Part shown: positions 16,394 through 42,944 of the stretch, in pieces | Position numbering within the stretch: the first letter of the stretch is position 1 | Layout of the letters: every line of letters starts with the position of its first letter | NCBI GenBank assembly: GCA_035289105.1 | Contig: DATDYF010000037.1 | Span: 6,418-70,417 of the forward strand | Origin: Candidatus Nanoarchaeia archaeon | Lineage (GTDB): Archaea > Nanobdellota > Nanobdellia > Woesearchaeales > JACQSR01 | Direction: 5' to 3' | DNA: 64,000 nt | Notes under the pieces: model-generated | What the model was told of the DNA's origin: nothing | The model's database searches: none | What the model saw: only the letters and a program-made list of their open reading frames with translations | Program-made: the position numbers and the translations under genes

Positions 16394-16394
16394 G

Positions 16395-21185: not shown

Positions 21186-21277
21186 TTTCTCGGCTAGAGA
21201 GACCCGAATACCACTTTTAAAGGTTTCGAATCGGTAACCGATAACCTTAAATATCAGTCGATATTATATATTATCAA

Positions 21278-22236: not shown

Positions 22237-22284
22237 ATGCTTGGTGCTGCTTTTCATTCCCAATTTCGAGGCTTAACAAGCCTA

Positions 22285-22400: not shown

Positions 22401-22460
22401 GCTCATTTATTTTTGCCCGTGAGTATAGGATGAATTGTTAGGACCTTAAAAATGTCAGAA

Positions 22461-22608: not shown

Positions 22609-22661
22609 GAAGTGCAGATTCTGCCACAAATCTTTTTAAACAATCAACGAACAAACTAAGC

Positions 22662-23312: not shown

Positions 23313-23380
23313 AAGTAAGAGAGCCATCGGAAAAATAGATAAAGGGGCAAATAAAGAAATTAAACACCCTCTAAAATCTC

Positions 23381-24868: not shown

Positions 24869-25017
24869 CTACCCTTTATATATTTTTCCCTGTGAGGAGT
24901 TTTAGGATTTAATATCTATTACGGTTCGGAGATGCTGGATAAAACCGAAATCTTTATATAGAAAAAAATTGATAGCGGTATTTTAACGGCCCAATTAGGG
25001 ATAAAAAGGGGAGAATA

Positions 25018-25158
25018 ATGAAAAAAGTGTGTTCCGTCCTACTGATTTCTGTTCTTATGATTCTCTCTGCGCTGGCCGTCACTGCGAAAGACTGTGAATG
25101 TGATACTGTTGTTACAAATATTGCAATACCCTCCGATCTAATTTCAAAAAGACACTAA
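25018..25158 (+). CDS. Small secreted ORF (46 aa) paralogous to the N-terminus of the giant protein. Possibly a 5' cassette or gene remnant.
   Basis: Signal peptide then 'AKDCECDTVVTNIAIPSDLI', compared with giant protein 'IKDCECGDTVVADYTFSSDLV'. SD 'aaaggggag' precedes the ATG. TATA 'ctttatata' about 60 nt upstream. Confidence 0.4.
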   Translation: MKKVCSVLLISVLMILSALAVTAKDCECDTVVTNIAIPSDLISKRH

Positions 25159-25161
25159 AAA

Positions 25162-25437
25162 ATGGCACGAAAAAACGATTATGACTGGATAAAAATAGTT
25201 GCCTTGTTCATATCGGTTGTTGTGGTGCTAATCATAGCAATAAGCATACGGAATGGGCTAACATCGGATAATATACTTTCAGGGGCAATTACCTTTAAGG
25301 GGCCCAACCCCCATTTATATACTGGACCTAATCCTTTCGGGGAACCTGTTGATATGGAAGCAGCTGTTGCTAGTTATTGTGGCAAAGGTATCTTAGATGC
25401 GGCCCTTGAGGCAAATATTTGTGGAGTGCCACAATGA
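25162..25437 (+). CDS. Small membrane-anchored protein (91 aa). Overlaps the start of the giant gene.
   Basis: Starts 'MARK' within 'aaaatggcacgaaaaa'. The same start context 'aaaatggcacggaaaa' recurs at the giant gene. One TM helix. Confidence 0.42.
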   Translation: MARKNDYDWIKIVALFISVVVVLIIAISIRNGLTSDNILSGAITFKGPNPHLYTGPNPFGEPVDMEAAVASYCGKGILDAALEANICGVPQ

Positions 25438-28400
25438 AAATGGCACGGAAAATAAGGATTTTGTTGCTCGTTTCTTTGATTACCATCATTTCGGCATTTA
25501 GCGCATCAGCAGCAGACTGCGGAAATGGCATCAAGGATTGCGAATGCGGGGATACTGTTGTAGCAGATTATACGTTTAGCTCTGACCTTGTCTGCGACGG
25601 CTCTTCAGGCCCTGTTAGCGGCCTTGTTGTGGGGAGCGATGTGCAGTTGAGCTGTGCTCCTGATGTTAAGATTGAGTGTGCTCCTGGAGTCAAGGATGGA
25701 GGGTCTTGCGAAACTGGAATTTCTATTTCTGCCAGCAACGATATAAGCATAACAGGCTGCACAATCATCGGATGGGATCGCGGAGTAAGGATAGGCAGCG
25801 GCTCTAGCAACATCAATATTACCCTAAACAAAATCTTGCACAACATTCAAGGCATTTTGGTTACGGGAGCCGGAAATAACATCACAATCAGTTATAACAC
25901 TGTATCAGGAAATGGGGTTGAATCTTCCCCTGGGGAAGGAGGGGTTTTGGGAAATTGCGGCGATGGAATAGACAATGATGCAGACACACAAGTGGATTGC
26001 GCGGACAGCGAATGCTCTTTTGATGTCCTGTGCGGAGGGCCTGGGCAGGGATACTTCGGCGGCAGCATCATGGTCTTGACTGTCCACGGCCAGGACAATA
26101 TCCAAATCATCGGGAACACAATTAACGACACTTTTGTATTCGAAAACAGGGGCGCCATTCATATCGGAGGCAGTAATGGCAATATTTCCAATCTTGTAAT
26201 CAGCAACAACACTATATATAATGTTCCCCTCTTCCCGGGAATATCTTTCTCCTTTGTCGGGATTATCAATTTGACGATAAGCAACAACTCGTTAACCAAT
26301 GTCGGAATAGGACTTGGATTTGGTTTTGCTGCGCCAGTTGAAAATGGCATCATCTCGGGAAACAGCGTGACCTGTTCAGGATTGAGTGCTACTCTTGGAG
26401 ATATCGGCATGATGGTAGCGGGAACAGCGGATGTCACCGGTAATATGGTTAATGACTGCGACATAGGCATATTTGCTACATTCGCAGGTCTTGCCCCGGG
26501 ATTTGTGCCCTCTCCAATATCCATTGACGCAAACACAGTAACTTCAAATTTCGGCACTGGAATCTGCACAGACATAGCCTTTGCCACTCTTGAAAACAAC
26601 GTGATATCCAATGGCATTATTGGAATTGCAGACCTCCTTGAGGAGTTTGACCCCGGCAACTGGCAGTCTGGAATAACAATACTCTTTAACTCTTATGCCG
26701 CTGTCCAGAAGGAAATATGCCGGGTTAGATCGCCTCTTGTTGGAGGATGCTTGCAGTTTGCAGAAGACGCATTGGCCGGAACGGTTAATCTGGATGCTTT
26801 GTGCGGTACAGGAGAGCCGCCGTTCTTTTGCCCTATTCAATTTAATTTCATTGTTGGCGGGCAGTTGTATGATGCTCCGGGAGGGGTTGTATATGTTTTC
26901 AAAGAATCAGAAGCCCAGGCTTGCGGCATAGACACCAGCGACGGTGTCCAGGATTATGAGTCGGGTTTGCCTTTCGGCTGTCAGGCTATAACTCAGACTT
27001 GGACTTGCAATGGAATTGCTGGTGGAACATGCAGCATAACGTTAGGTGATCCAGGGCCGGCAGGATATGTTGCGATTGCTTTCGATCATCCTCCAGGCTC
27101 ACAACCGCCGCCTAGTGTAGCTGGTGCTGCCGTATTCGGCGAATCATTATGCGGGGGCCAAGTTGATATCAATGAATTTGGCGGGGAAACCAACTGCGGA
27201 GACGGCATAGACAACGACAATGATGGAAGAATTGATTGCCAGGATGGTGATTGCCAGGGGTCTCCAAGTTGCCCAGGCTGTGTAGTTACCATGAACTGGG
27301 TTGACGAAAACCAACAGCCAGTTAATGCGCCATATGGGAATATTTTATTGCTTTCCTACGATGAAATTAACAATGATTGCGGTATCGACCTCAGTCAGGG
27401 AGTTACTACGGACATCTTCCAGGTATTCGGAAACCCATGTATTACCCAGGTACAAATTTGCGGATTATTCAGCGGAGAATCATTGTCAGACGGGCAATGC
27501 GTCAGCCAGGTTAACATAGCCGCTGGCGACCAAATTGTTGCAGTTGCAATTGGCTCTTTTGGCGCTGAGGAAATCCAGAGTGTGCAGGATTCATGCGAAA
27601 ACGGCTTGGATGATGACGGCAATAACCTTGTAGATTGTGCTGACCCGGCTTGCGCCCCTGCAAGGAATTGCGGACCTTCAAACTCCTTGGTTGGAGGGGG
27701 AATATTTGGGCCACAGGCATGCGGAGGCTCAGCAACAATCGGTCCCCTTGGAGGTCCAGAAGGGTGCCCTCTCACGTTTACTGCATTTGGTGAAAACAAC
27801 AACCCAGTTCCTGACGGTTCGTATATATTTACCTTGGAAACAGCTGTTATTAGCACCATTCCCTACGAATCACCTCAAGGATCGGGCAATTTTATCCTGA
27901 TAGATCCTTCAGATGGCATCGACTTTGATGAATGGTTTGGATTGCTCATCGCAGCTCAAAATGGGCCTCCGCCTGGATTAGACGGTGGGTGTATCTCGCC
28001 CCAAGGCCAGCCAATCCCAACCAGTGGCGGAACCTGTCAGGGAAGTTTAGGGGAACTTTTCCCCGGGAATCCTAATGCACCACACACCGTGGTTGTGCTC
28101 TACGATGACTTTATGAATCCAACACAAATAATTTCACAGAACTATAACTTCCTTACTTGTGGTGGACAGGTTATTATTGGAGAAAGCGGTCCTGAAGTTG
28201 GCGATTGTACAATTACCTATAGCTTTGTCGATGGCCAATCGCAGCCTATCGATGCTCCGAATGGAGGGGTTGTCATATTTAGCCAGAACGCGCTGCAGGC
28301 ATGCGTTGGTACATTTCCGCCCCCGGAGCCAGGAGAAGAGGATTGCAATGCTATCTTTAATCCGTCAGATGGGGTCATGGGCGGTGAAATTAGATGCGCC

Positions 28401-31400
28401 TTTACCTGCCCCGGTGCAAATGTAGGTACCTGTCCCATTAATCTATTTCAGGGAACTCCTGGAATTCCAGGTGGAAGCTGTACCTCCACTATTCTTGGTT
28501 CAGCAAGTCCCGATTACATGATAGCAATTGCTTTGGATACATTTAGTGGGCCGCCTAGCCTTTTTGGCACAGCAACCTTTACAGATGCTGAGTGCGGAAC
28601 AGAGATAATTCCTGGCCAGGTTACGATAGTGGCCGTAGGCGGACCCCCTCCAGGTGCGCTTCAGGTGCTTGTCCTGGAAGGTTCAAACCCCCCAGTAAGC
28701 CCGCCAGGTGCAATAGTCCTTGCCTTTGACGCCACTCAGCTTGAGGCCTTTTTGGGAACTGCTGTTCCTTATGATTTGTCTCCCACGCAGATGCAGAATT
28801 TATTTGCAGATTTAGACCTTGGGCCGGGAGCCGGACAATCTGGCTTTATAGGCGGATGTTTCGGCGAACAGGGGCCTTCACCAACAGGTGCAAATGGCAT
28901 GTGTGATTTGTCATTATTCTTCGGAGATCCAACAGGCCCTGTTGTTGTATTGGCATTCTTGAATTTAGATTTTCAGGCGCCAGATCCTAATTTTATTAAG
29001 ACAAGAGGAGTATACATCGATGGGCCGCCGCCCTCTCCAATCACCATCATCTTCCCCGCCCTTAACCTTTTTGTAGAGAGCGTTACTGCTGCCTCGCCAA
29101 TGGTCTCAGTTACTGCAGGGGCAACAGATGACACAATTGCATACCTTACCCTTTTCGATGGAAGTCCATTCGCCGGTGCAATCCGTATTGAAACAAGGGC
29201 AGTTGCCTTAAGGGTAAATGCTCCAATAACGGAAGTATTTGAAGTGCCGGACAGCCCCTCCACAACCGGAGGAAGCCTTCATGCATTCTTTGCGCAGGTT
29301 TCACCGATTAACGACCTCTTCCCGCAGGATAATGTAAAAGCAGAGGTAAGGCCAAGCATCCTGGCATCTGTAACTAGCAGCAGCAGCACAAAATCCAACT
29401 CTGTCCGTGATTTCTCCTTCACAACAAGTGTTGATGATTACGTTCCTTCCGCAGCCGATTCATTGGTTATCATCGTTCCTGATTTCGGCAAGAGCAAAGC
29501 AGATTATAGCGCCATTGCAGAAAAGCTTGCGCAATCAGAAAAACGGGTATTTGTCATTGACCCTGTTGGGTATAAGGGAACAACCAGTACGGTAACCACC
29601 AGCGACCCCCTCTTCAAAGGGAACAACCTCCGAAAATGGAAAGAGAAGGACCGATTATTGCCTATTTCTGCACAGTTGTGCGCTCTTATTCCTCAATTGA
29701 AGGCCGAAACTGGCCTTGCCAGTGCAACAATCATCGGGGATGGCATGGGCGGGGCAATAGTTAACACCCCGGAATTGGTCTGTTCAGCGCAGGCAAATGC
29801 TTTGGTTTCTACGGGGGCTTACTGCAAGCCGGTCACTTTCAGCGAAGGCGGCCCAAAATCCGCTGTTCCGTATTTCAATCTTAAGGACGGAAAAACCCCA
29901 TGTGAACTGCCCCCTTCATCAGTGCCCTCTTTGGTTTTGCAAGGTGATGAAGAGAAGCCGCAGGGGGATTTGTGGTTCTTCAAGTTCAAGAACAAGAAGC
30001 CAGTTACCTACGGCCTTATCCAGGGCGCCCAAGATTCATTCATAACAAACAGTTTCGCCGGAACACCGGAGTTTGATAATGCAGAGATATACATCAAATC
30101 CTTTATCGAAAAGGAGACAGGCGGTGCATATACTCAGTTGGAGAACGACCTTAACTTGAGGCCGGAGCTTGTCCATCTTTTATTGGAAGATGTCAGGGCA
30201 AATGATGATGCGGTAAAGCCCAAAGACACTCTTGTTTCCAATGATGGCTTCAATCTTTTCGCCATTGAAAGCGCAGACTTAAGCAGCACCCCCACAGGAT
30301 GGGCTGTTGGCTCTGTTGTGGATATCGAAGATGTCAAGGACGACTTTGCCAACTTCATGACCAACGCCCTGAAAATCAGCGCAGGCGAAGCAACTCAAAA
30401 GGTATTTGTTAAGGGAAGCTTTGAAAATCCCGATTCAGGCCAGCTTGTTTTGAACTACAAGGTTCTTGCCCCAAGCACCAACCCGGTTGACAGCTCCGCA
30501 AAACTAAGGCTGGACTTCAAAGACATGCAAGGCAACTCGCTTGCCTGCATTGAATTCCATTCCACAAACCTTCCGGTAAGTTCCACATGCAGCTTTGCCA
30601 TTGCGGTCTCCTCAGGAAACGACGGCAGGATACAGGAGATAAGCAACATCCCAGTCTCCGAGATACTAAAGTCTGTTGGGGCCTTCACAACCAAGATATT
30701 CTCAGTTGACATCGAAATCAGTTCTGACAGTCCCTTTTATTATGATGATGTCGAACTCCTGCTTGAAGAAGATGTTTTGGAGGTGAATGAAGCAGACTTT
30801 TTGGATTTAACTTCTCACACAGCCACCTTCACATCGCCAATTATAAACATAAATGCGGGAGAGCAATTAACATCCATCCTGCCCCTGTTCGTGGCAGAAG
30901 ATGGCGCATCAATTACCGCTGATGTTCTTGATGAATTTGATATTCCCATAATTTCAGGAATTGAGCTTAATTCTGCAGCTAATCTTATGGCATTCCACGA
31001 AACGCTCAAGGGGCTGGATTCATTAAAAGTGCGGTTCAACCTTGATCCGGGAGTTACGCTGTACAAATACTATGTTGTTGCCAAGCCTGTTGATGTGTTT
31101 GATACAAACATTAATGGGGTGGAGGTAAACTCGCTCTTGCTTGACGAGCAGGGCTCCCATTCCGATTACAGCGTTGCATTTAACCTGAACAACCCTGGTG
31201 ACTTTGACTTAATTTCAGCCGGGGAAACATTAAGCTCCGATGCCATCTCATTCGGTGTTGGTGAAATCTACAATCGCGTGGTAAAAACGGATAATTCAAT
31301 CACAAGGAGCGATGCTAATAATGGAATCACTGAAACCGATGTTAGTAGCTCATCAGGCACTGTTGATTCATTTATAACCTTGTTTGATTCGAGTGTCGAT

Positions 31401-34400: not shown

Positions 34401-37400
34401 ACATTTACCAACACAGTGCTGCCTGGCGAATCACCTGCAGACTTTGTATTGGACCACACCGTACTTGAGTTTGTTAGTATGGATGAAACCAAGGTTAACC
34501 TTCTATTGATAGAGCTCGGGGAGAAATGCAATGAGCTGTTTATCAATGTAACTGATATCATCAACAAAACAATACCTAACATAGAGCATAAGGGAGTTCC
34601 GCTGTCAGAAATGACTTTATGCGATGATGTTGAAATCAATGGCTTAAGCCTGTGCGATGCCAATTTAGTATTGATAAACGATAGCGACATCCTTGATGTG
34701 GTGCTAAATGGGGATGTTGTAGGCCAGATGGATTTAAGGGCCCTCCTCACAAACCTCGTCTTTGCCTTAACTTATGATGTAGGTGGAGAAACATTCAATG
34801 ATGCGACTGGAACAATAGGGGACATATTGGACCTGAGGGAAGTAAGGCTTGGCTCTTCCAACCTTCTCGATAACGTGCTCCTTTCTTCCAATTCCATAAG
34901 GAATAGCGAAGTTGATGTGCTGACAAGGCTATTTATGGATTACTCAATAGGCACCCTCTCGAAACCGCAAAGGACTCTAACATTCGACAATAAGAAGGCA
35001 ATTGAAGTGTTGGATATAACATTAAACTCTTATGACCAATTCAACCTGGATTGCGCTATAGCGAAGGAGATTCAGAGCAAGGTAGATTTGGAGGGCACTG
35101 AAATTGATTCTCCGATAAGCAAGGTTGAGTTGTGCGATGTGTTTGGCATTCCTACACCCTTAAGCAATGCGCAATTTGGAATCAGCTCCTACTCACCGCC
35201 TATTGGAAGTCTTAAGGAGGGCAGCCTAACGGTTAATCTTAACAGCGTAGAGTTTAGCGATTTCACTCTTGAAACGCTGTATAACCTTACTGAGTTCGAT
35301 TCAGAAACATGTGATATTCACAACAATGAATTTACGGATGCAGCTGTATCAATCAATTGCGAATTAAGCGCAACGGGAAATAACTTCTTTGGCAAGGACC
35401 TTAGCGATGGCGGTGACTTAATCCTTGGGTCGCCTGGCGCATTAGTAGTAGCTGTACCGGATGATGACGATAAAGTTGAAATATCCGGAAACAGGTTTAA
35501 TTTCAACCACATGGGAGGCCCTGGATTGGTGGGCGCAGCAGAAGTTGATGTATCTAAAAACGATTTCGTGGACCCATTGTTTAACGCACAATACATAACT
35601 GATTCCAGGAATTATCTGGAGCAGTTCATTGTAAAAGAGAACCTCGACACTGTAGATATAAACGACAACGTGCTTGTTGATAGAGTTGAAAGCAGGATAA
35701 GCAGGGATGAAGCCAAGGAGCTCGCTAATACCGCTGACAAATACAATCTTGTTGACGACAGGTATGCGGATTTAGCTTCGGATAGGTCAGAAATAGCAGA
35801 GCTTAATAGGGCATTAAGCCAGCTTAATGATATAGACATTGAAAGCATCCAGCTGACAAATGAAATTGCCGATATGTTTGGCATAGATATATCGAGAGTT
35901 GAAACATTGCTTAATAGGGAATTAACACCGATAGATATTTCAAACCTCGATGTGGATAACACCCTAAATATAGAGAGGAATTACTACAGGGGCTTTAACA
36001 GTGTTAGGGCATATTTGCCCGAGCTAATAATCCCGGGAAATCTCAACTTTGCTACAGAGACCTCAGTGTTTATTTATCCAAAGAAGCGCGTATCCTTCGT
36101 TGGCAACGCCATCGTTGACAATCCGCCTATAAAAATAAAATCAAAAGAGGCGATTGACATCTCTAAGGTATTATTGCTGAATAACTTCAGGGCTGGCTGT
36201 GAAATTGATGATGCAGCCGGCATGAGAAACTGCGCCGATGTTGAGTTATCAACCATGGCGGAACCGCCAGAGATTTCAGGTGCAACCGCTGCGTCATTGG
36301 ATAGGGATGAGGATACTGTGCCTAACCATGTTGACAACTGCCCATTCACCCCAAATACTGGCCAGGAAGACACGGACTTTGACACTTTAGGGGATATGTG
36401 CGATAACTGCGATGATTTCAACCCTGACCAGTTTGACAGGGACCTTGATGGGATTGGAGATGTATGTGATAATGATAGGGATGGCGACGGCATTGCCAAT
36501 CCGGCAGATGCCTGCCCAAATGCCTTCGATCCGGGCAATTCAGCGGAAATATGCAGTGGTTGTGTTGATTTGGATGCAGATACATTCTACGCCTTTGATG
36601 CGGATGAATGCACTGGGGGCAATGACTGTGATGACAGCAACGCAGCAGCAAACATCTTTAGATTGGAGGCATGCAATAATCTGGATGACAATTGTAACGG
36701 CCAAACTGACGAATCCGTGCTCCAGAGATGCGGTGCTAGCGATGTAGGAGAATGTACTTTTGGAGTTGAAGCTTGCTCAGCAGGAAGCTACATTGGATGC
36801 ACTGCAATATTGCCCACTGCAGAGGTTTGCGATGGCTTGGATAATGATTGCGATGCAATAGTGGATGAAGGGATTGCTCCACAGCAGTGCGAAGTTACTG
36901 ATGCTGGAGAATGCAGATTTGGATTAAGGAGCTGTGAAGGAGGCGCATTCAGTTCTTGTGTGGGCAACATTGATCCAGTAGCAGAGATATGCGATAGCCT
37001 TGACAATGATTGTGATGGGCAAGCAGATGAAAGCGCTGCAGGCGGAGACCTTACAGAGGTTTGTGGCACAGATGTAGGCGCATGCCAAACTGGCGTGAGA
37101 ACGTGCTCTGCAGGAGGATTTGGAGTATGTGTGGGAGAAATTGCTCCCGTAGGGGAGACATCCTTGGCCTGCAACAACATAGATGATAACTGCAATGGAG
37201 TAATAGACGATGGTTATGATAGGGATGATGATGGCTTTACGAGCTGTGATACGCCAAAACCAGACTGCAACGACAACGATCGGTCAATTAATCCGGATGC
37301 GCCTGAAAGATGCAACGATGGCATAGACAACAACTGTGATGGCAAAGTAGACTTTGGCGATACAGTTAACTGCCCTGCTGCCGATAAGGTATCTGTTGAG

Positions 37401-38453
37401 CTGCACACAATAGACCAGGCAAAAACTAATTATTGCGGTGCAGGAAGGGGCAGCTGCAAGGAGCCGATACAAGGTGCTAGGGTAAAAGTCTTTGACAGGG
37501 ATAACGCTGACTTCCAGAGCGCGTTCACCAAGAATCCAAGCGGCACTTTATACGATGTGGTCTATGAGTCTGACATTGGCTTGATTGGCAGCTGCATTAC
37601 TGACAGCAGCGGCAGTTGCCTTGCAGTGGAGCAAGGTGCTGGCACTTACCTAGTTATAATCAAATATGTAGACGAGGAAACAAACTCAAATATATATGTA
37701 GGCAGGCCAAAGTCCCCATCTGACTTCGTTGATGTGAATGGCGACGGCAAAAGGGATATGGCAACAAAAGAAATACAAATAATTAAAGTCCTCGAAAAGG
37801 GCGGCAGGATTACCTTTAGGGGAGGAAGCAAAATCGTTGTTACAGGCTCAGAATTAGTGGTTATTTCAGCTGATAATGTGATTTGGATGAATGACAGGGA
37901 AGTTTATCCGTTCATATTCACTTCAGATGCTGACTGGACTGTGGATGTCTGCATGCAAATACCTGCGGGCTACCGAATAGAAGGTGTGCTGGATGAGAAT
38001 GGAAACGTAGTAACTACGGCAAATTGCGCGCAAACGTTTGTATCCGGCGAGGCTAAAGTAGTTATTTTCTCAGTAGTTGAAGTAGGCAGTCCGGAGCCTA
38101 ATTTCGGATTCACATTAACTACAAAGCATAATGGAAAAACTCAAACGGCAAAGGGGACAATAAATGGCATAAGGCAAAAAACGAAAACCCAATTGCAAAA
38201 GCAAATATCAACTAAAGTTAAGGCAGCTAAACAGGAAATAGCTAATCGCCAAGCAAAAAGCCAAACAAAAGAGACAGCTTCTCCACTAACCTCCAGAGCA
38301 GTAATCTCCAGGGCAGCAATGAGTTCAGCAACAGCATCAGAGCCTGTTGCGCCAAATGGAAATCTGACTTTCATATTCGCAATTTCTTCTATAGCCCTGC
38401 TTGTGTTATTGCTGGCAGTTATATATATCTACAAGGAAAGGGCAGCAAGATAA
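25419..38453 (+). CDS. Giant secreted cell-surface protein (4344 aa). Contains signal peptide, parallel beta-helix, three CGDGIDND Cys motifs, C-x9-C repeat array, TSP3-like Ca-binding repeats, MopE-like Cys-rich repeats, CarboxypepD_reg-like domain and a C-terminal TM anchor.
   Basis: Single uninterrupted 13035-nt ORF. N-terminal 'KIRILLLVSLITIISAFSASA'. PbH1-like 'ISNNTIYNV/ISNNSLTNV/ISGNSVT'. 'NCGDGIDNDNDGRIDCQDGDC' appears three times. 'DTDFDTLGDMCDNCDDFNPDQFDRDLDGIGDVCDNDRDGDG'. 'CDGLDNDCDAIVDE/CDSLDNDCDGQADE'. 'GARVKVFD..TDSSGSC..GTYLVI'. C-terminus '..LTFIFAISSIALLVLLLAVIYIYKERAAR'. Confidence 0.9.
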   Translation: MWSATMKMARKIRILLLVSLITIISAFSASAADCGNGIKDCECGDTVVADYTFSSDLVCDGSSGPVSGLVVGSDVQLSCAPDVKIECAPGVKDGGSCETGISISASNDISITGCTIIGWDRGVRIGSGSSNINITLNKILHNIQGILVTGAGNNITISYNTVSGNGVESSPGEGGVLGNCGDGIDNDADTQVDCADSECSFDVLCGGPGQGYFGGSIMVLTVHGQDNIQIIGNTINDTFVFENRGAIHIGGSNGNISNLVISNNTIYNVPLFPGISFSFVGIINLTISNNSLTNVGIGLGFGFAAPVENGIISGNSVTCSGLSATLGDIGMMVAGTADVTGNMVNDCDIGIFATFAGLAPGFVPSPISIDANTVTSNFGTGICTDIAFATLENNVISNGIIGIADLLEEFDPGNWQSGITILFNSYAAVQKEICRVRSPLVGGCLQFAEDALAGTVNLDALCGTGEPPFFCPIQFNFIVGGQLYDAPGGVVYVFKESEAQACGIDTSDGVQDYESGLPFGCQAITQTWTCNGIAGGTCSITLGDPGPAGYVAIAFDHPPGSQPPPSVAGAAVFGESLCGGQVDINEFGGETNCGDGIDNDNDGRIDCQDGDCQGSPSCPGCVVTMNWVDENQQPVNAPYGNILLLSYDEINNDCGIDLSQGVTTDIFQVFGNPCITQVQICGLFSGESLSDGQCVSQVNIAAGDQIVAVAIGSFGAEEIQSVQDSCENGLDDDGNNLVDCADPACAPARNCGPSNSLVGGGIFGPQACGGSATIGPLGGPEGCPLTFTAFGENNNPVPDGSYIFTLETAVISTIPYESPQGSGNFILIDPSDGIDFDEWFGLLIAAQNGPPPGLDGGCISPQGQPIPTSGGTCQGSLGELFPGNPNAPHTVVVLYDDFMNPTQIISQNYNFLTCGGQVIIGESGPEVGDCTITYSFVDGQSQPIDAPNGGVVIFSQNALQACVGTFPPPEPGEEDCNAIFNPSDGVMGGEIRCAFTCPGANVGTCPINLFQGTPGIPGGSCTSTILGSASPDYMIAIALDTFSGPPSLFGTATFTDAECGTEIIPGQVTIVAVGGPPPGALQVLVLEGSNPPVSPPGAIVLAFDATQLEAFLGTAVPYDLSPTQMQNLFADLDLGPGAGQSGFIGGCFGEQGPSPTGANGMCDLSLFFGDPTGPVVVLAFLNLDFQAPDPNFIKTRGVYIDGPPPSPITIIFPALNLFVESVTAASPMVSVTAGATDDTIAYLTLFDGSPFAGAIRIETRAVALRVNAPITEVFEVPDSPSTTGGSLHAFFAQVSPINDLFPQDNVKAEVRPSILASVTSSSSTKSNSVRDFSFTTSVDDYVPSAADSLVIIVPDFGKSKADYSAIAEKLAQSEKRVFVIDPVGYKGTTSTVTTSDPLFKGNNLRKWKEKDRLLPISAQLCALIPQLKAETGLASATIIGDGMGGAIVNTPELVCSAQANALVSTGAYCKPVTFSEGGPKSAVPYFNLKDGKTPCELPPSSVPSLVLQGDEEKPQGDLWFFKFKNKKPVTYGLIQGAQDSFITNSFAGTPEFDNAEIYIKSFIEKETGGAYTQLENDLNLRPELVHLLLEDVRANDDAVKPKDTLVSNDGFNLFAIESADLSSTPTGWAVGSVVDIEDVKDDFANFMTNALKISAGEATQKVFVKGSFENPDSGQLVLNYKVLAPSTNPVDSSAKLRLDFKDMQGNSLACIEFHSTNLPVSSTCSFAIAVSSGNDGRIQEISNIPVSEILKSVGAFTTKIFSVDIEISSDSPFYYDDVELLLEEDVLEVNEADFLDLTSHTATFTSPIININAGEQLTSILPLFVAEDGASITADVLDEFDIPIISGIELNSAANLMAFHETLKGLDSLKVRFNLDPGVTLYKYYVVAKPVDVFDTNINGVEVNSLLLDEQGSHSDYSVAFNLNNPGDFDLISAGETLSSDAISFGVGEIYNRVVKTDNSITRSDANNGITETDVSSSSGTVDSFITLFDSSVDTITQDINFGAGCHVEVDDVVMTSAFTTNKLIDIVCPNEEFTLTPFYGASNIELNEVKVDPVDATKDTVGDLDKLEVRDDSALTKTAGESVLEEGYDFSLLQDFLQNDIYQFLLDNGINDSLTQFFKNQLDKSADGVLKRDQVLETAFLGLLGGDNNFSTIMDTEVQFTATGIRLITRTQGNSILSRTIGISSSLNSDRFSIKGPGLAEGKCTSTRAIVLESSLITPKGLSVSDCVDIFVRGESKDLAQDVNSIDQLAKEAVSPRLDKEMVDTVLDSAKDNVTPRRGVISIGGSFDMRDSTISALDDLGFIGISVAGNSFVENSEVLDFQYFQSSAGCNFIGSVFESSAIDLLEEENRNAAENRNSEQLDFARQFHGVSCSSVDTGPANALDQSPSGNYKPSDVATSSVAEATLKIFEMDDPCVLSVAEGGSVCDKVLADLNARDVPITIRSFGEAADQLNLADIAFNQDLTNIKVSEIGKIPSSLSSITFKGIPLDQIMATDILDEINNNQKIDEVNAIRTNIENTGIDNNADELLTEGEEIAQPGLLDANLAPVSYSGLMVETPVEDLDVCLLSLPDGTGICDVRIDQDTIIEDLGITLCGLKRNGVSICNIITDDLNDNPTLDTVGYEAEYQVSKNGDVDVSELSLGDLAIGDRGDSVPFTALDTSINNVKFCDLQLEGVSVCNVVAGKTAVEQATDFTGLDAFDIIQKLENIPDIRESDYTGSFDYLMENLNFCANYAGYIDAELRKENNLDYLRVDKSFKFGNVAKLHIDGMCSVQLDQTSLCDLEGNDVYGPVIQNSAAISDSCNNAAGDFGSCVTNLKELNSCQLTIGGVSVCSVEVSKGLINDQTVYAGFNITKLQINGLCALAYKGISICDTSIDKVFNFTESQGTLEAATGEELISACDLTFNGINLCSGHQFDDEFCDQAKIDGVSVCNSRWDNRLVDDELITEAAQGQVFNDARDGGTFGDEQKQRLLRPSVCDLEINGTTLCDAVALVTFTNTVLPGESPADFVLDHTVLEFVSMDETKVNLLLIELGEKCNELFINVTDIINKTIPNIEHKGVPLSEMTLCDDVEINGLSLCDANLVLINDSDILDVVLNGDVVGQMDLRALLTNLVFALTYDVGGETFNDATGTIGDILDLREVRLGSSNLLDNVLLSSNSIRNSEVDVLTRLFMDYSIGTLSKPQRTLTFDNKKAIEVLDITLNSYDQFNLDCAIAKEIQSKVDLEGTEIDSPISKVELCDVFGIPTPLSNAQFGISSYSPPIGSLKEGSLTVNLNSVEFSDFTLETLYNLTEFDSETCDIHNNEFTDAAVSINCELSATGNNFFGKDLSDGGDLILGSPGALVVAVPDDDDKVEISGNRFNFNHMGGPGLVGAAEVDVSKNDFVDPLFNAQYITDSRNYLEQFIVKENLDTVDINDNVLVDRVESRISRDEAKELANTADKYNLVDDRYADLASDRSEIAELNRALSQLNDIDIESIQLTNEIADMFGIDISRVETLLNRELTPIDISNLDVDNTLNIERNYYRGFNSVRAYLPELIIPGNLNFATETSVFIYPKKRVSFVGNAIVDNPPIKIKSKEAIDISKVLLLNNFRAGCEIDDAAGMRNCADVELSTMAEPPEISGATAASLDRDEDTVPNHVDNCPFTPNTGQEDTDFDTLGDMCDNCDDFNPDQFDRDLDGIGDVCDNDRDGDGIANPADACPNAFDPGNSAEICSGCVDLDADTFYAFDADECTGGNDCDDSNAAANIFRLEACNNLDDNCNGQTDESVLQRCGASDVGECTFGVEACSAGSYIGCTAILPTAEVCDGLDNDCDAIVDEGIAPQQCEVTDAGECRFGLRSCEGGAFSSCVGNIDPVAEICDSLDNDCDGQADESAAGGDLTEVCGTDVGACQTGVRTCSAGGFGVCVGEIAPVGETSLACNNIDDNCNGVIDDGYDRDDDGFTSCDTPKPDCNDNDRSINPDAPERCNDGIDNNCDGKVDFGDTVNCPAADKVSVELHTIDQAKTNYCGAGRGSCKEPIQGARVKVFDRDNADFQSAFTKNPSGTLYDVVYESDIGLIGSCITDSSGSCLAVEQGAGTYLVIIKYVDEETNSNIYVGRPKSPSDFVDVNGDGKRDMATKEIQIIKVLEKGGRITFRGGSKIVVTGSELVVISADNVIWMNDREVYPFIFTSDADWTVDVCMQIPAGYRIEGVLDENGNVVTTANCAQTFVSGEAKVVIFSVVEVGSPEPNFGFTLTTKHNGKTQTAKGTINGIRQKTKTQLQKQISTKVKAAKQEIANRQAKSQTKETASPLTSRAVISRAAMSSATASEPVAPNGNLTFIFAISSIALLVLLLAVIYIYKERAAR
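33108..34670 (+). repeat. Array of about 11 degenerate C-x9-C repeats (consensus C-D-L-x-h-x-G-h-S-h-C-D/N) inside the giant protein
   Basis: VCLLSLPDGTGICD, LCGLKRNGVSICN, FCDLQLEGVSVCN, MCSVQLDQTSLCD, SCQLTIGGVSVCS, LCALAYKGISICD, ACDLTFNGINLCS, FCDQAKIDGVSVCN, VCDLEINGTTLCD, LCDDVEINGLSLCD. Confidence 0.6.
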
Positions 38454-38488
38454 GCATTTTATGCAGCACAATCGATGAATAACAACCC

Positions 38489-38497
38489 TTTTAAATA
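38489..38497 (+). promoter_or_regulatory. TATA box (ttttaaata) about 25 nt upstream of the MMPL gene ATG
   Basis: Supports ATG 38519 rather than TTG 38504 as a leaderless start. Confidence 0.35.
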
Positions 38498-38518
38498 CGC
38501 AGATTGAGACTCTTAGCA

Positions 38519-40897
38519 ATGCTGGAGAGATACGTCAGATTTGTTGAGAAGCATGCAAAATTATTGCTTTTCTTAGTCTTTCTTGTAACTTTGTTCTTCA
38601 TTTTCAGCCTTAAGGATTTGTCTTTTGACTCGGGTTCTGAAAGATTTGTGCCGCCTGACGTTCTGGAAAAACATAAGGAAATCATGGATGCATTCAACAT
38701 GAGCAGCAGGCCTTTCTATGTGTTGGTTACAGGAAAAAACATAAGTGTGCTCTCACTAGAAGCACTAAAAGAGGAATATACTCTTTCAAAAGCATTGGAA
38801 TCCGAATTTGGCATTAAAATAATTAACATTGCCTACTTATTCGACTTTCTTTTAAGGCAGGAAAAAAACGAGACCCTGCTCCAGCAGGAAAGCTGGGTAA
38901 ATGTGAGCCAGACTTTTAAGAGCGCTTTGGACGAAGTCAGAAGCATCAAGCCCTTAAAGCAGCAATTCAAGGAATTCTCATATCAGCTTTTGTCAAACGA
39001 CCTGGATAAAAGGGAGCTATTTTCTCCTGCAATTCTAAGAAGAACCCTCTCTGCAAACAAAACATTGTTCATTGTGTTGCCTGAAGAAGTTTATGATGAG
39101 AAAGAGATGCTGCAATTGAGCCTGAATATGCGGGATTTTCTCTCTGGCAAAAGCTTTGATTATATTGATGCAAAGGCATTCTCAGATCTGTACCTTATTT
39201 ACGAATCAGACTCGTATATGCGGAACGAAGCCTTTTACCTCGGAATCTTAATGTTTCTGATAATCGCTTTTATTTTGTTTCTCTACCTCAGGCGTATTTC
39301 TTATGTCATGATTCCGTTGATTATCATAGGGGTCTCTCTGGTTTGGACTTTTGGCACTGCAGCCTTTTTAGGAATAGAGCTTACGTTTCTTGGGACTCTT
39401 ATCGCCCCTGTATTAATTGGAGCCGGAGTGGATTACTCTGTGCACTTTATTAGAAGGTATACCGAAGAAAGGAAAACAAAGGAAAGCACTCAGGCATTTA
39501 GCATTACTCTGGCGCACACCGGAAAAGCCACATTCATGACCGCCGTTATAACAGCTATTTCTTTTGGGTCAAACTTTTTCTCCACACTTCCTCCGCTGAA
39601 AGATTTTGGCATAATTACCGCTGTTGGAATTCTATATGCGTTTATTTTAACCATAGTTCTTCAGCAAGCGCTAATGAGCCTTGTCGAAAGGCCAAAAGAG
39701 CTTGTGTTTGCAGCAAGGGAAAATCCGTGGTCAAAGAATATTCTAAAATTTACCTTGGAGCATTATAAGGGAATATTGCTTGTTACTGTTTTAATTAGCC
39801 TTGTCAGCGGATATTATGCCCTGCAGATAAACAGCTATTTTGACTTTGAAGCTTCGATATCGCAGGAAATTGAATCAAGGAAAACAATCAAGGATATTCG
39901 GGATAATTTTCCCTTCGAATTGCAGATTGGGGCGCTGGTGAGAAATGCAGACGACCCTTTTCTCTTTGAGAAAATTTACAGTTTTGAAGAAGAAATGAAA
40001 AAAAGCCCTTATGTAATCCAAATAGATGGCAGCATAAAAACAGACAACATAAGGAGGGCACTGAAGATGGTATTTGGCTATAACGAAAGCCTTGCTGAAA
40101 AATTCGAATTTAACCTGGAAGGAATCCCCACAACTGTAAATCGGACTCTCGTCCTGGATTTATATCAAGATATTTATTCCAGCAATACAGCAATTAACCC
40201 CCTTTTCAACCTAAGCACCTCTAATTTAATCCATACAGTCCTGCAAAGAACAGATTCCGATAATTACAGCACAGTTATTGTAGCGAAAATGGTGATTCCA
40301 AATACGGAGGCCTTAGAAAAGGGGGTGAGTAATTTTACAAATTCCCTGGATATAGCAAAAATACAGGTGGAGGATTTTTTTGGCTGGGCTTATTATGCAT
40401 TTACAATTGATGAAAACATTGCTGAAAGCAACCAAAAATCAGTGTTTTTCTCAATCCTGACCATATTCGTGGTTCTTCTGCCAGTTTACAGAAAAGTTAG
40501 AGAAATAGTGTACCTTATGCTGCCAATCTTGATTACCATACTCTGGACCATAGGGGCATTGTCAATCCTGGGCATTGCCTTAAACCCTGCAAATGCGATG
40601 GTGGCAGTAATGATAATTGGGTTGGGCTTGGATTATAACATCCACATAGTTGAAAGATACAAAGAAGAAAGGCAGAAATTTTCAAAACTGGAAGCGTTGG
40701 AAAACACGTTAAGCCAATCCGGCTCGGCAATATTTTTTTCTGCCTTGACAACGGTTGCCGCATTTGCAGTAATAGCCATCTCCAGAATCCCAATAACAAG
40801 GGAGTTCGGCCTAATACTCCTGATAGCAATAACCGCTGGCTTTTTGTTCAGCTCCATAATCACGCCTATTTTGCTGTATAGGTGGGATCTGGAATAG
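38519..40897 (+). CDS. RND-superfamily / MMPL-type exporter with two 6-TM bundles and sterol-sensing-like domain
   Basis: Duplicated 'GAGVDYSVHFIRRYTEER' and 'GLGLDYNIHIVERYKEER' motifs following TM bundles. Large periplasmic-type loops. About 790 aa. Confidence 0.82.
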   Translation: MLERYVRFVEKHAKLLLFLVFLVTLFFIFSLKDLSFDSGSERFVPPDVLEKHKEIMDAFNMSSRPFYVLVTGKNISVLSLEALKEEYTLSKALESEFGIKIINIAYLFDFLLRQEKNETLLQQESWVNVSQTFKSALDEVRSIKPLKQQFKEFSYQLLSNDLDKRELFSPAILRRTLSANKTLFIVLPEEVYDEKEMLQLSLNMRDFLSGKSFDYIDAKAFSDLYLIYESDSYMRNEAFYLGILMFLIIAFILFLYLRRISYVMIPLIIIGVSLVWTFGTAAFLGIELTFLGTLIAPVLIGAGVDYSVHFIRRYTEERKTKESTQAFSITLAHTGKATFMTAVITAISFGSNFFSTLPPLKDFGIITAVGILYAFILTIVLQQALMSLVERPKELVFAARENPWSKNILKFTLEHYKGILLVTVLISLVSGYYALQINSYFDFEASISQEIESRKTIKDIRDNFPFELQIGALVRNADDPFLFEKIYSFEEEMKKSPYVIQIDGSIKTDNIRRALKMVFGYNESLAEKFEFNLEGIPTTVNRTLVLDLYQDIYSSNTAINPLFNLSTSNLIHTVLQRTDSDNYSTVIVAKMVIPNTEALEKGVSNFTNSLDIAKIQVEDFFGWAYYAFTIDENIAESNQKSVFFSILTIFVVLLPVYRKVREIVYLMLPILITILWTIGALSILGIALNPANAMVAVMIIGLGLDYNIHIVERYKEERQKFSKLEALENTLSQSGSAIFFSALTTVAAFAVIAISRIPITREFGLILLIAITAGFLFSSIITPILLYRWDLE

Positions 40898-40915: not shown

Positions 40916-41368
40916 TCAGGGAGACAATCCTTTTTCCTTTATTATTCTATCAATCTTTTTGATGATGCCGTTATGGAAATCCAATATTTCCTTGGCTTCC
41001 TCGACGCTGACGGTTTGGCCGTAATACTTTGAGCCGTTTCTTTTGTATCTGAACCTATCGAGCGTTTCCAGCATTTGTATATTAAAATTGAATTTTGCAA
41101 GATAGGCAAACGAAGCCTGATGGGAGTAGGATTTATAACCTTCTATTGCTAAAACTGCGTCTGCAAAATCCCTAAGCGCGTCATAGACATTCTCAAAGAC
41201 GATTTTTGGGTAGTTCTGGGTCAACAGTGACTTCGAGTCCTTGATTCTGCTATTCATATCCCTAACAAGTGATTTTGCTAAAGCTAAATCGGGCGCTGCC
41301 TTTTTTACTTCGCCAATCTCAAGGTAATAGTCAAAAGGTTTCATAATCAAGGTAACCAAACAGTACAA
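40916..41368 (-). CDS. HEPN domain protein (partner of MNT)
   Basis: 'FRYKRNGSKYYGQ' paralogous to 21814-22236. Overlaps the upstream NTase gene by 38 nt. Confidence 0.7.
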   Translation of the reverse strand: MYCLVTLIMKPFDYYLEIGEVKKAAPDLALAKSLVRDMNSRIKDSKSLLTQNYPKIVFENVYDALRDFADAVLAIEGYKSYSHQASFAYLAKFNFNIQMLETLDRFRYKRNGSKYYGQTVSVEEAKEILDFHNGIIKKIDRIIKEKGLSP

Positions 41369-41861
41369 CCCCGTTTATTAGGTTGGTATAGAGCTCTTTT
41401 GGAATCTTTCCGTTCTGAACCAGCAGGATATGAATGCCCCTATTTAACATTTTCTCAAATATTTTCGTACTAACCGAATATTTTTCGGAAGTTACTACTG
41501 CAATATCTATGTCGCTTTTCAAGACATCCTCTCCTCGAGAGTAACTTCCAAATAGGATTATGGCTTTCGGGTTGTAGTGCTTTCTCAAAAAGTCTATTAC
41601 CCCGGAATCATAGACTTTTTCCAAGTTATGCAACCTTTTTTTTGCGAGAAAATGCGGGTTTTCTAGGTTTGGCGTAATTTCCACAATATGCTTCTTAACT
41701 TCCCTTTTAACCAGGCTTTCCTTTTCCAGCTCCTCAAGGGCATTAAGGACGCTGTTAGGGTTTACATGGATTTCCCTTGCAAGCTCCCTTATATAGAATT
41801 TCCTGGAGGGATTGTCAAAAATCCTTGAGATTATTTTCTGTTTTACATTCATTTTATACAA
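41331..41861 (-). CDS. Minimal nucleotidyltransferase (MNT) with wHTH
   Basis: Motif 'GSYSRGEDVLKSDIDIAVV'. Paralog of 21278-21817. Confidence 0.8.
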   Translation of the reverse strand: MYKMNVKQKIISRIFDNPSRKFYIRELAREIHVNPNSVLNALEELEKESLVKREVKKHIVEITPNLENPHFLAKKRLHNLEKVYDSGVIDFLRKHYNPKAIILFGSYSRGEDVLKSDIDIAVVTSEKYSVSTKIFEKMLNRGIHILLVQNGKIPKELYTNLINGVVLFGYLDYETF

Positions 41862-42521: not shown

Positions 42522-42944
42522 CTATTCCTTCGGCGCTTCCGGCCTTATCTTGGGCAACGGTATTGGCGGAGGCAGATTTACATCCTGGCTTAGGATTAAT
42601 GCCTGAACATTGCATTTTGTAAGAACCGTGTTAAGAATTTCCGTCATTATCTCCTTAGGCACTCTCTTGTCTTTCTTCCAGCCCTCCATTATTTCTTTGG
42701 AGCGCTTAGGGTCGGACATGAACATTGTTGAGCCGCCAAGCATAATGCTTCCAATCTCGGGGTCGTATTTTGAGGTGAATTCAAAAGAAAATTTCAGCGT
42801 ATTCTGCTTTTCCTTTCCAAATGTGACATCCTGCGGCTCTATGTTCACAATGGAAACATTGTTGCTTATGTTAATCTTTCCGCCCTTTCCGATATCCGAT
42901 TTAGTGACATTGATTTTGTTGAATCCAAACCCGACTACTGCCAT
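42522..42944 (-). CDS. Hypothetical protein
   Basis: 140-aa ORF with no recognised family. Confidence 0.45.
   Translation of the reverse strand: MAVVGFGFNKINVTKSDIGKGGKINISNNVSIVNIEPQDVTFGKEKQNTLKFSFEFTSKYDPEIGSIMLGGSTMFMSDPKRSKEIMEGWKKDKRVPKEIMTEILNTVLTKCNVQALILSQDVNLPPPIPLPKIRPEAPKE

Follow-up and report, generated by a model that had tools for sequence, protein, structure and literature searches.

A locus in the window, by which we mean the whole 64,000-nt stretch of DNA analysed here, raises the question of what a giant surface protein does for the cell that makes it, and whether the transporter encoded directly downstream serves that protein. The DNA comes from a DPANN-type archaeon from groundwater, listed at NCBI as 'Candidatus Nanoarchaeia archaeon', for which a symbiotic lifestyle is presumed because of its lineage. 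In DPANN archaea with small genomes, a large share of the coding capacity goes into a small number of huge surface proteins with a presumed role in host contact.

Gene order and integrity of the locus

The first-pass annotation had described two short leader-like ORFs, a giant gene and, 65 nt further downstream, an MMPL/RND exporter gene with its own TATA box. The ORF coordinates bear out this order, with the transporter ATG at 38519, and a TATA-like element is indeed present ahead of it. The genes and putative promoter elements are the following:

24953..24960, + strand: TATA-like TTTATATA, ~58 nt 5' of ORF1, read directly from the sequence
25018..25158, + strand: ORF1, 46 aa, with a signal-peptide-like segment (hydropathy) and a DCEC-DTVV motif
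25162..25437, + strand: ORF2, 91 aa, with an N-terminal TM segment (aa 6-35) and a two-Cys tail (HLC65270.1)
25434..38453, + strand: giant gene, 4,339 aa, ~460 kDa, pI ~4.05, net charge ~-390
38489-38497, + strand: TATA-like TTTTAAATA, ~26 nt before the MMPL ATG, read from the sequence
38519..40897, + strand: MMPL/RND transporter, 792 aa (HLC65272.1), with ~12 TM segments and two large outside loops (hydropathy)

The giant ORF runs uninterrupted from 25419 to 38453 on the + strand, which gives 4,344 codons when counted from a TTG. Translation probably begins at the ATG at 25434, with a GGAG 9 nt ahead of it, for a product of 4,339 aa; the gene is already in NCBI as HLC65271.1, 'MopE-related protein', with a start at 25440 (4,337 aa). 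Six public contigs (four assemblies and two sequencing runs) overlap the window at 28519-50898 with 99.8-100% identity. Five of them extend into the giant gene and are collinear over aa ~1029-4339, the 5' end is covered by other public contigs, and none of the contigs covering the gene shows an indel or stop inside it. The integrity of the reading frame, proposed earlier as a check, thus holds across independent assemblies, whose distinct differences within the gene are 10 synonymous and 3 non-synonymous. Only one copy of the gene exists, and its DNA sequence is not repetitive. Its GC3 equals that of the housekeeping genes, which argues for a resident gene and against recent import.

Judging by its sequence, TTTATATA is the likely promoter of a unit comprising ORF1, ORF2 and the giant gene. 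ORF1 is preceded by an SD-like AGGGGAG at 25007-25013, and its exact peptide is called in Logan/ENA assemblies, though not by NCBI. Both short ORFs are present, yet ORF1 is no leader in its own right. It matches residues 2-53 at the start of the giant with 38% identity over 52 aa (E 4e-8; tblastn, small comparison) as a truncated homologue, and may be what decay or truncation has left of a copy of the giant's leader. ORF2, annotated at NCBI as hypothetical protein VJI46_04060, gave no family match in HMM scans. The stop of ORF2 and the ATG of the giant overlap in the sequence ATGA, and ORF2 would be a small membrane protein, perhaps translationally coupled to the giant. At the edge of the window, the partial ORF 2-889 had been described as carrying a CARDB domain; CARDB narrowly misses its cut-off there (21.8 bits against 22.7), and NPCBM_assoc and Big_9 score above their cut-offs there.

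Topology and modules of the giant protein

Signal peptide and TM segments of the giant were judged by hydropathy only. This revealed an N-terminal signal-like segment (aa 3-29, maximum 2.29) and a C-terminal TM segment (aa 4307-4335, 2.91), with one weak beta-helix strand as the only further hydrophobic segment. The segments at both ends bear out a secreted protein with a C-terminal TM anchor. Since this single TM segment is followed by only six cytoplasmic residues, ~4,280 residues would lie outside the cell. No CTERM model for an archaeosortase-type sorting signal was found in the last 100 and 350 residues (NCBIfam, E<=1). The ectodomain has a pI of ~4 and contains 136 cysteines, and N-x-S/T sequons are depleted (18 vs 40 +/- 6 expected), an uncommon feature in an archaeal surface protein. 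From the N- to the C-terminus, the chain comprises:

25434..25514, + strand: signal peptide, MKMARKIRILLLVSLITIISAFSASA followed by AD, cleavage site inferred from an ASA motif
25515..26798, + strand: right-handed beta-helix head, aa ~28-455 (Pfam Beta_helix, NosD)
25953..26039, + strand: acidic double-disulfide (teneurin C-rich-like) module 1, aa 174-202 (NF033662, self-similarity)
26823..29003, + strand: five divergent Cys-containing modules of ~110-150 aa each, aa ~464-1190 (internal repeats)
27183-27272, + strand: C-rich module 2, aa 584-613, between the Cys-containing modules
27594-27704, + strand: C-rich module 3, aa 721-757, between the Cys-containing modules
29031..36290, + strand: orphan core, aa 1200-3619, matching no family, homologue or structure
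29454..29831, + strand: weak alpha/beta-hydrolase-like stretch, aa 1341-1466 (Pfam, below cut-off)
32664..34655, + strand: 11 disulfide-hairpin motifs, aa 2411-3074, irregularly spaced at 20-150 aa
36294..36533, + strand: thrombospondin type-3 calcium-binding repeats, aa ~3621-3700 (Pfam TSP_3)
36540..37403, + strand: five MopE-type Cys/Asp motifs, aa ~3703-3990 (Pfam Cu-binding_MopE)
37461..38144, + strand: membrane-proximal beta-rich region, aa 4010-4237
38145..38351, + strand: basic K/Q/T/S-rich linker, aa 4238-4306, pI ~11
38352..38450, + strand: C-terminal TM helix, aa 4307-4333, and basic tail KERAAR (6 residues) (hydropathy)

Most of the modules named in the first-pass annotation were recovered above curated cut-offs. 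Residues 1-480 match Beta_helix (PF13229) with 47.4 bits against 25.9 and NosD (PF05048) with 41.1 against 23.6. The CGDGIDND motif corresponds to the NCBIfam model acid_disulf_rpt (NF033662; 51.6 bits, cut-off 41) and occurs in three stretches, the first of which is inserted in the beta-helix. C-rich module 2 ('ETNCGDGIDNDNDGRIDCQDGDCQGSPSC') shares 62% identity over 29 aa with the C-rich domain of teneurin-4 (PDB 7plp), which contains three bound Ca2+ and three disulfides (PMC9058538). The TSP3-like calcium sites score 39.9 bits in the whole protein and 50.5 in the segment (PF02412, cut-off 25) and match the COMP structure 3fby with an E value of 1.4e-27. The five MopE-like Cys-rich stretches score 56.1 and 81.8 bits, respectively (PF11617, cut-off 27), and match the MopE structure 2vov at E 0.002. 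As the TSP3 and MopE modules make up <10% of the protein, the name 'MopE-related protein' fits only a minor part of it. The five Cys-containing modules at aa ~464-1190 are presumed to be beta-sandwiches.

The CarboxypepD_reg-like domain of the earlier description did not reappear: neither aa 3990-4339 nor the rest of the giant gave a match at E<=1. HMM scans of the giant likewise gave no match to RTX (HemolysinCabind), ResIII, AAA, RHS/YD or NHL, and ten overlapping segments contained no Laminin_G or Ig family at E<=1.

The orphan core and the question of an enzyme

The ~2,400-residue core (aa 1200-3599, 55% of the protein) has no relatives in any searched database, in line with the proposed novelty of the central part. 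Its content of hydrophobic residues (32-33%) is similar to that of the folded head; two AF2 models within it had pLDDT values of 31.6 and 29.9 and were unusable. The claimed novel Cys-pair array proved non-random: residues 2400-3620 contain 15 C-x9-10-C pairs, compared to 1.27 +/- 1.09 in 2,000 shuffles (maximum 7). The hairpin motif reads C-D-L-x-h-(x)-[NDE]-G-[VTI]-S-[VLI]-C-[DNS] and has a 12th copy at aa 3589-3600. A profile search detected no further copies in the window, the paralogue loci or the PDB.

Because 55% of the protein is without an assignable fold, an enzymatic or toxin domain could hide in the core. The beta-helix superfamily is rich in carbohydrate-active enzymes, e.g., lyases and glycosidases. 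The Beta_helix/NosD repeats and the hydrolase-like signal at aa 1341-1466 (Hydrolase_4 and Abhydrolase_1, both at E ~0.005 and thus a hint only) could accordingly be taken to mean that the giant is not an adhesin but a cell-tethered polymer-harvesting enzyme, with a lyase or hydrolase head and maybe a hydrolase-like domain in the core. We consider this unlikely. HMM scans of the giant detected no glycoside-hydrolase, lyase or peptidase family at any threshold, and the hydrolase-like stretch has no PDB match and no nucleophile serine, as GDGMG replaces the expected GxSxG. Moreover, a nutritional enzyme would hardly need a stalk of >4,000 aa.

A short paralogue with the same ends

The sole homologue of the giant in the searched databases is P0075/P0078, a protein of 1,297 aa from the same MAG (same-MAG locus tags, same samples), present at NCBI as the partial entries HLC65968.1 and HLC64899.1. 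P0075 is 47% identical to aa 3-614 of the giant, which cover the signal peptide, the beta-helix head and the first module, whereas the Cys-containing modules of the two proteins share 27% identity. Such better conservation of the head relative to the stalk modules is as expected for a functional end. The paralogue also possesses Cys-containing modules with a C-rich linker (with a Big_1 match below threshold in the modules of P0075), a C-terminal TM anchor, and a membrane-proximal domain: residues 4136-4237 of the giant are homologous to its C-terminal domain (29% identity, E 4e-9; BLASTP). It lacks the C-rich insertion in the head, where the alignment with P0075 shows a gap, and has no counterpart of the orphan core with its Cys-hairpin array or of the TSP3 and MopE modules. 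Roughly 2,900 residues between the shared ends of the giant are absent. The paralogue locus contains neither an MMPL gene nor ORF1/ORF2.

The adjacent MMPL gene

The assignment of the downstream gene to the MMPL/RND family is sound, with two stretches matching PF03176 at 135.6 bits (cut-off 20.5). The closest model is HAE3 (TIGR00921), at 267 bits and below its cut-off of 351.9. The protein resembles HAE3/MMPL RND transporters such as HpnN and MmpL3 in its MMPL domain pair, sterol-sensing-like TM bundles and 12-TM, two-loop layout, but differs from HpnN and MmpL3 in scoring far below both equivalog cut-offs.

The first-pass annotation had suggested that this exporter could supply lipid or glycan for the anchoring or modification of the giant; adjacency is all that joins the two. 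In a wider form of this idea, giant and MMPL would constitute one module. Lipid or glycan for anchoring or modifying the fibre would come from the transporter, or else the RND protein would move lipids of a host that the fibre has tethered, and an HpnR-like rSAM protein would complete the lipid theme. In every assembly, giant and MMPL share a strand and are separated by 65 nt. The MMPL protein resembles the hopanoid transporter HpnN and sterol-sensing domains at scores below threshold, and a divergently oriented B12 radical-SAM gene upstream of the locus (23381-24868) has HpnR as its best NCBIfam match. However, as all assemblies represent one population (99.8-100% identical), the adjacency carries no comparative weight. 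The scores for HpnR (266 bits, cut-off 650) and HpnN (168 bits, cut-off 752) are far under the cut-offs, the GC3 of the rSAM gene is very different (0.30 vs 0.44), and the plain TM anchor of the giant requires no lipid attachment. The expected synteny of the pair in relatives was not found either. The paralogue locus is without an MMPL gene, and upstream of P0002, the nearest MMPL relative anywhere (28% identity), the 413 bases up to the contig end contain no gene on the same strand, which leaves room for a large gene beyond that end. Finally, the MMPL gene has a TATA-like element of its own, and TTTTAAATA, to judge from its sequence and position, would be compatible with a separate, leaderless transcript. 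We therefore regard a single giant-MMPL module as improbable. The MMPL protein would most likely be an independent RND transporter for lipids or hydrophobes with its own promoter, and caution is in order before function is read into its place beside the giant gene.

Relation to known surface proteins

Giant Sec-exported, C-terminally anchored, acidic surface proteins have been linked to host contact in other DPANN archaea (PMC6642349; PMC10266531), and the giant described here is a further member of this known class. Like the SPEARE proteins of Nanohaloarchaeota (SVXNc_0300, BNXNv_0298; PMC6642349; PMC10266531), it comes from a DPANN archaeon, comprises thousands of residues with a Sec signal and a pI of ~4, lies almost wholly outside the cell with a TM segment near the C-terminus, and carries adhesion-type modules, and host contact is the proposed role of these proteins. 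There is no detectable sequence homology between the two. SPEARE-type proteins have a conserved cytoplasmic domain (annotated as restriction endonuclease or VirB4/TraG-like ATPase), whereas six residues follow the TM segment of the giant, and they contain laminin-G and Ig-like domains, neither of which was detected in the giant.

Teneurins, like the giant, combine a C-rich module with a separate domain that follows it, which is a TTR/carboxypeptidase-like domain in teneurins (PMC6297184) and a presumed beta-rich one in the giant. Unlike teneurins, the giant contains the C-rich module three times, once inside the beta-helix, and has no EGF repeats, NHL propeller, YD shell, FN-plug or toxin domain. 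MopE of Methylococcus capsulatus and COMP/TSP share with it calcium- or metal-binding, disulfide-rich extracellular repeats. A type-I-secreted RTX giant adhesin of the LapA/SiiE type was rejected on account of the missing RTX repeats, the N-terminal Sec signal and a neighbour that is an RND and not an ABC transporter.

A probable membrane-anchored fibre

Taken together, we think that the giant is probably a type-I membrane-anchored fibre that is exported by Sec and displays a ligand-binding beta-helix head on a calcium- and disulfide-stiffened stalk, with the MMPL protein acting independently. Export would need the Sec pathway alone. Stiffened by Ca2+ and disulfides, the chain would form a long stalk, with a length of the order of 100 nm, that would hold the conserved head away from the cell. 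The head would be the ligand-binding end, most likely for a glycan or surface polymer of a partner cell, and the long and short paralogues may provide two different reaches. An adhesin-like function of the giant with a role in host attachment is a reasonable inference.

The extreme acidity, the many Ca2+-binding modules, the very large size and the membrane anchor would also suit a structural or protective coat, mucin-like or S-layer-associated, that binds calcium and has no specific partner; such a protective, mucin-like role has reportedly been proposed for halomucin. The gene is, however, single-copy with non-repetitive DNA, and the distinct, better-conserved head shared with the short paralogue speaks for a specific binding end and against a bulk coat, which makes this explanation very unlikely. 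Highly speculative, with only a slight chance of being right, is a scenario in which the core is a new extracellular fold class forming an extensible calcium- and disulfide-locked spacer, the paralogues serve two-reach host capture, and the giant is coupled to the HpnR-like rSAM and HpnN-like RND proteins for uptake or remodelling of host lipids by a lipid-dependent DPANN cell. An assembly chimera or decaying pseudogene can practically be dismissed: many public contigs break in or near the gene and its own database entry was not among the protein search returns, but an open frame of 13,035 nt is beyond chance, and the five independent collinear contigs, those at the 5' end and the excess of synonymous differences all speak against it.

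The putative membrane-anchored fibre presents a new architecture built from reused modules, namely a beta-helix head, teneurin-type C-rich calcium modules, TSP3 and MopE, together with a lineage-specific share that amounts to 55% of the chain. The resemblance between the archaeal CGDGIDND module and the C-rich domain of metazoan teneurins is one more observation bearing on the prokaryotic origin of teneurin parts. Screens for ligands can be aimed at the head (aa 28-614), a well-delimited target, and the long and short paralogues with the same ends constitute a natural experiment on stalk length.

Integrity of the Giant Gene

The gene for the giant surface protein lies in the following arrangement (window coordinates):

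25018-25158: ORF1, 46 aa
25162-25437: ORF2, 91 aa; its stop codon overlaps the ATG of the giant gene as ATGA
25434-38453 (+): giant gene, 4,339 aa (database entry P0080/HLC65271.1)
38519-40897 (+): MMPL/RND transporter gene

As the first-pass annotation had proposed, the giant ORF is real and uninterrupted, forming a single open frame on the + strand (25419-38453; 4,344 codons when counted from TTG). The most plausible start codon is the ATG at 25434, which has a GGAG 9 nt upstream and gives a 4,339-aa product beginning with MKMARKIRILLL. In the NCBI annotation of the identical sequence the start is placed two codons downstream, yielding HLC65271.1, a "MopE-related protein" of 4,337 aa encoded on an 84,928-bp contig from a MAG named Candidatus Nanoarchaeia archaeon. 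The protein is already deposited yet uncharacterized.

Positions 28519-50898 are overlapped by six public contigs (four assemblies, two sequencing runs) at 99.8-100% identity, five of which extend into the giant gene, and further contigs span 11278-25921. Inside the giant gene, 10 synonymous and 3 non-synonymous distinct differences separate the contigs. None of the overlapping contigs carries an indel or stop within the gene, and therefore no frameshift appears upon resequencing. Tandem DNA repeats and DGR-type variation were searched for in the giant gene and not found. The gene neighborhood is that of an ordinary archaeal chromosome, with genes for CDC48, GatD/GatE, a family-B DNA polymerase, pyruvate phosphate dikinase, malate/lactate dehydrogenase, and enzymes of the serine pathway.

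A frameshifted 115-nt nucleotidyltransferase fragment (22272-22385) is 85% identical to a stretch of the full wHTH-nucleotidyltransferase gene copy (41584-41698). Both are in direct orientation, 19.3 kb apart with the fragment upstream, and enclose HAD, radical-SAM, ORF1, ORF2, giant, MMPL, and HEPN-like genes. We set aside a mobile island as explanation for this block, since it contains no integrase, none of 7 public contigs represents an empty-site variant, and the GC3 of the giant gene is native. Pairs of wHTH-nucleotidyltransferase and HEPN-like genes of the toxin-antitoxin type are located at 21278-22236 (+) and 40916-41861 (-); they are mutually divergent (35 and 30% identity) and point toward one another from either side of the block with the giant gene.

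Elsewhere in the window, the partial gene at 2-889 (+) is the 3' end of a further gene for a protein of secreted type, in which two Ig-like Big_9 domains and one NEW3/CARDB-like domain were recognized and which has no terminal TM anchor. It had earlier been read as a second adhesin-like protein with a CARDB domain; the CARDB score is slightly below the cut-off. At 61701-63554 (+), a lytic transglycosylase (SLT) domain (Pfam, E 1.2e-13) is present in a 617-aa product, which would be a peptidoglycan-cleaving enzyme in an archaeal genome and hints at interaction with bacteria. The 756-aa product of 43973-46243 (+) matches only HTH_23 at its N-terminus and is otherwise without family; most strain-level SNPs downstream of the MMPL gene fall in this gene, and another SNP cluster lies at 42789-42936. 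ARAGORN detected a tRNA-Gly(TCC) at 58781-58852 (-), whereas Rfam at gathering thresholds returned no RNA family window-wide.

Topology and Domain Composition

Hydropathy analysis revealed only two TM-grade segments in the giant, aa 3-29, a signal peptide ending in ...SAFSASA|AD, and aa 4307-4335, the C-terminal TM anchor that had been proposed, which is followed by just six residues (KERAAR). Anchoring by an archaeosortase was rejected because no sorting signal of this type was detected. Together, these features point to a type I membrane protein with a predicted ~4,280 extracellular residues. The computed mass is ~460 kDa, with a pI of ~4.05, a net charge of ~-390, and 136 cysteines.

Anatomy of the giant surface protein, from N- to C-terminus

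aa ~28-455: right-handed beta-helix (Beta_helix 47.4 bits, NosD 41.1 bits)
aa 174-202, 584-613, and 721-757 (nt 25953-26039, 27183-27272, and 27594-27704): three "CGDGIDND" modules (NCBIfam NF033662)
aa ~464-1190: five divergent Cys-containing modules of 110-150 aa each
aa 1200-3619: core, no family match at E<=1
aa ~3621-3700: thrombospondin type-3 (TSP3) repeats (COMP match, E 1.4e-27)
aa ~3703-3990: five MopE motifs (81.8 bits)
aa 4010-4237: membrane-proximal beta-rich region
aa 4238-4306: basic K/Q/T/S-rich linker, pI ~11, followed by the anchor

The beta-helix, the TSP3-like calcium sites, and the MopE-like Cys-rich motifs reported from the sequence were thus all recovered by profile matches, as were the three CGDGIDND motifs, which reach 51.6 bits with NF033662 ("acidic double-disulfide repeat," acid_disulf_rpt; cut-off 41). 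A CarboxypepD_reg-like domain, also claimed, found no support, as HMM searches gave no match at any threshold offered; the call probably arose from a "TDssGsC...GtY" pattern, which resembles the domain at the motif level only. N-x-S/T sequons are strongly depleted in the ectodomain (18 observed vs. 40 +/- 5.8 expected from shuffles) and entirely missing from aa 450-1200 and aa 3620-4010. Archaeal surface proteins do not usually show such depletion.

The Orphan Core

The giant has an unusually large orphan core. This core is certainly coding, and its population differences comprise two synonymous and two non-synonymous changes without stop or frameshift. It is probably also folded; hydrophobic residues make up 32-33% of the core, similar to the folded head. 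The array of novel Cys-pair repeats described earlier is real, with 15 C-x9-10-C pairs compared to 1.27 +/- 1.09 in shuffled sequence, but it is not tandem. Twelve copies of a previously undescribed disulfide-hairpin motif, C-D-L-x-h-(x)-[NDE]-G-[VTI]-S-[VLI]-C-[DNS], are spaced irregularly, 20-150 aa apart, and show no repetition at the DNA level. A sub-threshold alpha/beta-hydrolase-like stretch (aa 1341-1466) would, if real, be inactive because GDGMG stands in place of GxSxG.

Searches with aa 1200-2399 against a word-indexed database of 5.8 billion proteins and with aa 2400-3599 against 1.84 billion representatives (full HMMER) gave no match, and in neither case was the giant's own P0080 entry returned. 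Despite being part of the collection, P0080/HLC65271.1 was never retrieved by the homology tools, so negatives for very long proteins call for caution: such proteins may not have been indexed, and the empty core result is weaker than it appears. Contig scans were seeded with exact 8-residue peptides, the alignment-based ones also accepting a small number of alternative residues, were confirmed by tblastn, and thus address close relatives only; across GTDB genomes, JGI metagenomes, and IMG/VR they recovered only the giant gene and one paralogue. Phage and plasmid collections yielded no tblastn match, and PDB sequence searches with the core, the hydrolase-like stretch, and the hairpin profile returned nothing meaningful. 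Single-sequence AlphaFold2 models reached mean pLDDT values of 31.6 (aa 1200-2399) and 29.9 (aa 2400-3599) and were unusable for fold assignment.

A Short Paralogue and Two Upstream ORFs

The only homologue of the giant that we found is P0075/P0078, a complete protein of 1,297 aa that shares 47% identity over aa 3-614 of the giant and ~27% over the modules beyond. Its C-terminal domain aligns with aa 4136-4237 (29% identity, E 4e-9), and a TM anchor terminates the protein. P0075/P0078 is best read as a paralogue within one genome because its NCBI copies carry the same locus-tag prefix (VJI46_) as ORF2 and it occurs in the same samples as the giant, on contigs with similar G+C content. It represents a short form of the giant: the head (the beta-helix N-terminal part) and the foot are shared, whereas the C-rich head insertion, the orphan core, and the block of TSP3 and MopE modules are missing. 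Its locus contains no ORF1, no ORF2, and no MMPL neighbor.

ORF1 aligns to residues 2-53 of the giant with 38% identity, comprising a signal peptide and then KDCEC-DTVV vs. KDCECGDTVV in the giant, and the differences fall at replacement and synonymous sites alike. It is a truncated homologue of the giant's leader and N-cap, and may be either a small peptide that is secreted or what is left of an old 5' duplication. In ORF2, a TM segment at the N-terminus is followed by a 60-residue tail with two cysteines, and no family match was found for it. The ATGA overlap suggests that ORF2 and the giant are translationally coupled.

The MMPL Neighbor

The MMPL gene starts with an ATG at 38519, 65 nt beyond the giant's stop, and a TATA-like TTTTAAATA (38489-38497) lies ~26 nt ahead of it, in agreement with the spacing and separate TATA box first described. 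Its product is an MMPL-domain RND protein (135.6 bits) with HAE3 as best model, albeit below its cut-off (267 vs. 351.9); HpnN, SecDF, and sterol-sensing domains gave lower-scoring hits.

The adjacency is real, and a true coupling between the giant and the MMPL protein is one rival view of the locus. However, the MMPL gene is absent beside the paralogue and all contigs showing the adjacency come from one population; hence there is no comparative evidence for a functional pair. For the closest relative of the MMPL protein among 5.8 billion proteins (28% identity), the contig ends 413 bases upstream; no gene on the same strand lies in that interval, but a large one farther up is possible. The exporter link drawn by the first-pass annotation is therefore unsupported, and the giant would need only Sec and its TM helix.

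The divergent B12-binding radical-SAM gene at 23381-24868 (-) has HpnR (hopanoid C-3 methylase) as best NCBIfam match (266 bits vs. a cut-off of 650). Its GC3 of 0.30 is unusually low and unlike that of its neighbors, and it lies inside a low-GC patch (22-24.9 kb, GC 0.346). A lipid theme across this gene and MMPL is conceivable, with HpnR-type scores far below threshold.

A Possible Stalked Adhesin and Its Relatives

Giant, acidic surface proteins that are Sec-exported and C-terminally anchored occur in other DPANN archaea (PMC6642349, PMC10266531). The protein described here is a member of the giant DPANN surface proteins and fits their general picture in export, anchor, and acidity, but it falls outside the SPEARE family, the giant membrane-anchored surface proteins of Nanohaloarchaeota: the cytoplasmic ATPase/nuclease-like domain of that family is missing, as are its laminin-G and Ig domains, and no shared sequence is detectable.

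Our analysis establishes the topology, module content, and acidity of the giant, and a head and foot in common with the short paralogue. An adhesin role is plausible. With calcium bound to its C-rich, TSP3, and MopE modules, and with its many disulfides, the giant could form a stiff, extended stalk that would hold the conserved beta-helix head at a great distance from the cell. As the best-conserved part of the protein, this head may be the binding end, and the giant and its short paralogue would then provide two reaches. Alternatively, the beta-helix head may carry an enzyme, or the giant may serve as an envelope coat.

The second CGDGIDND copy and the C-rich domain of human teneurin-4 (PDB 7plp) share 62% identity across 29 residues. 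In the teneurin domain, acidic residues bind three Ca2+ and three disulfides are formed (PMC9058538); according to the authors of that structure, it resembles no known fold. The archaeal modules follow the pattern "CGDGIDNDxDGxxDCxDxDC," and in teneurins and the giant alike a C-rich module stands before a separate further domain. This likeness suggests a prokaryotic pool for the C-rich part of teneurins.
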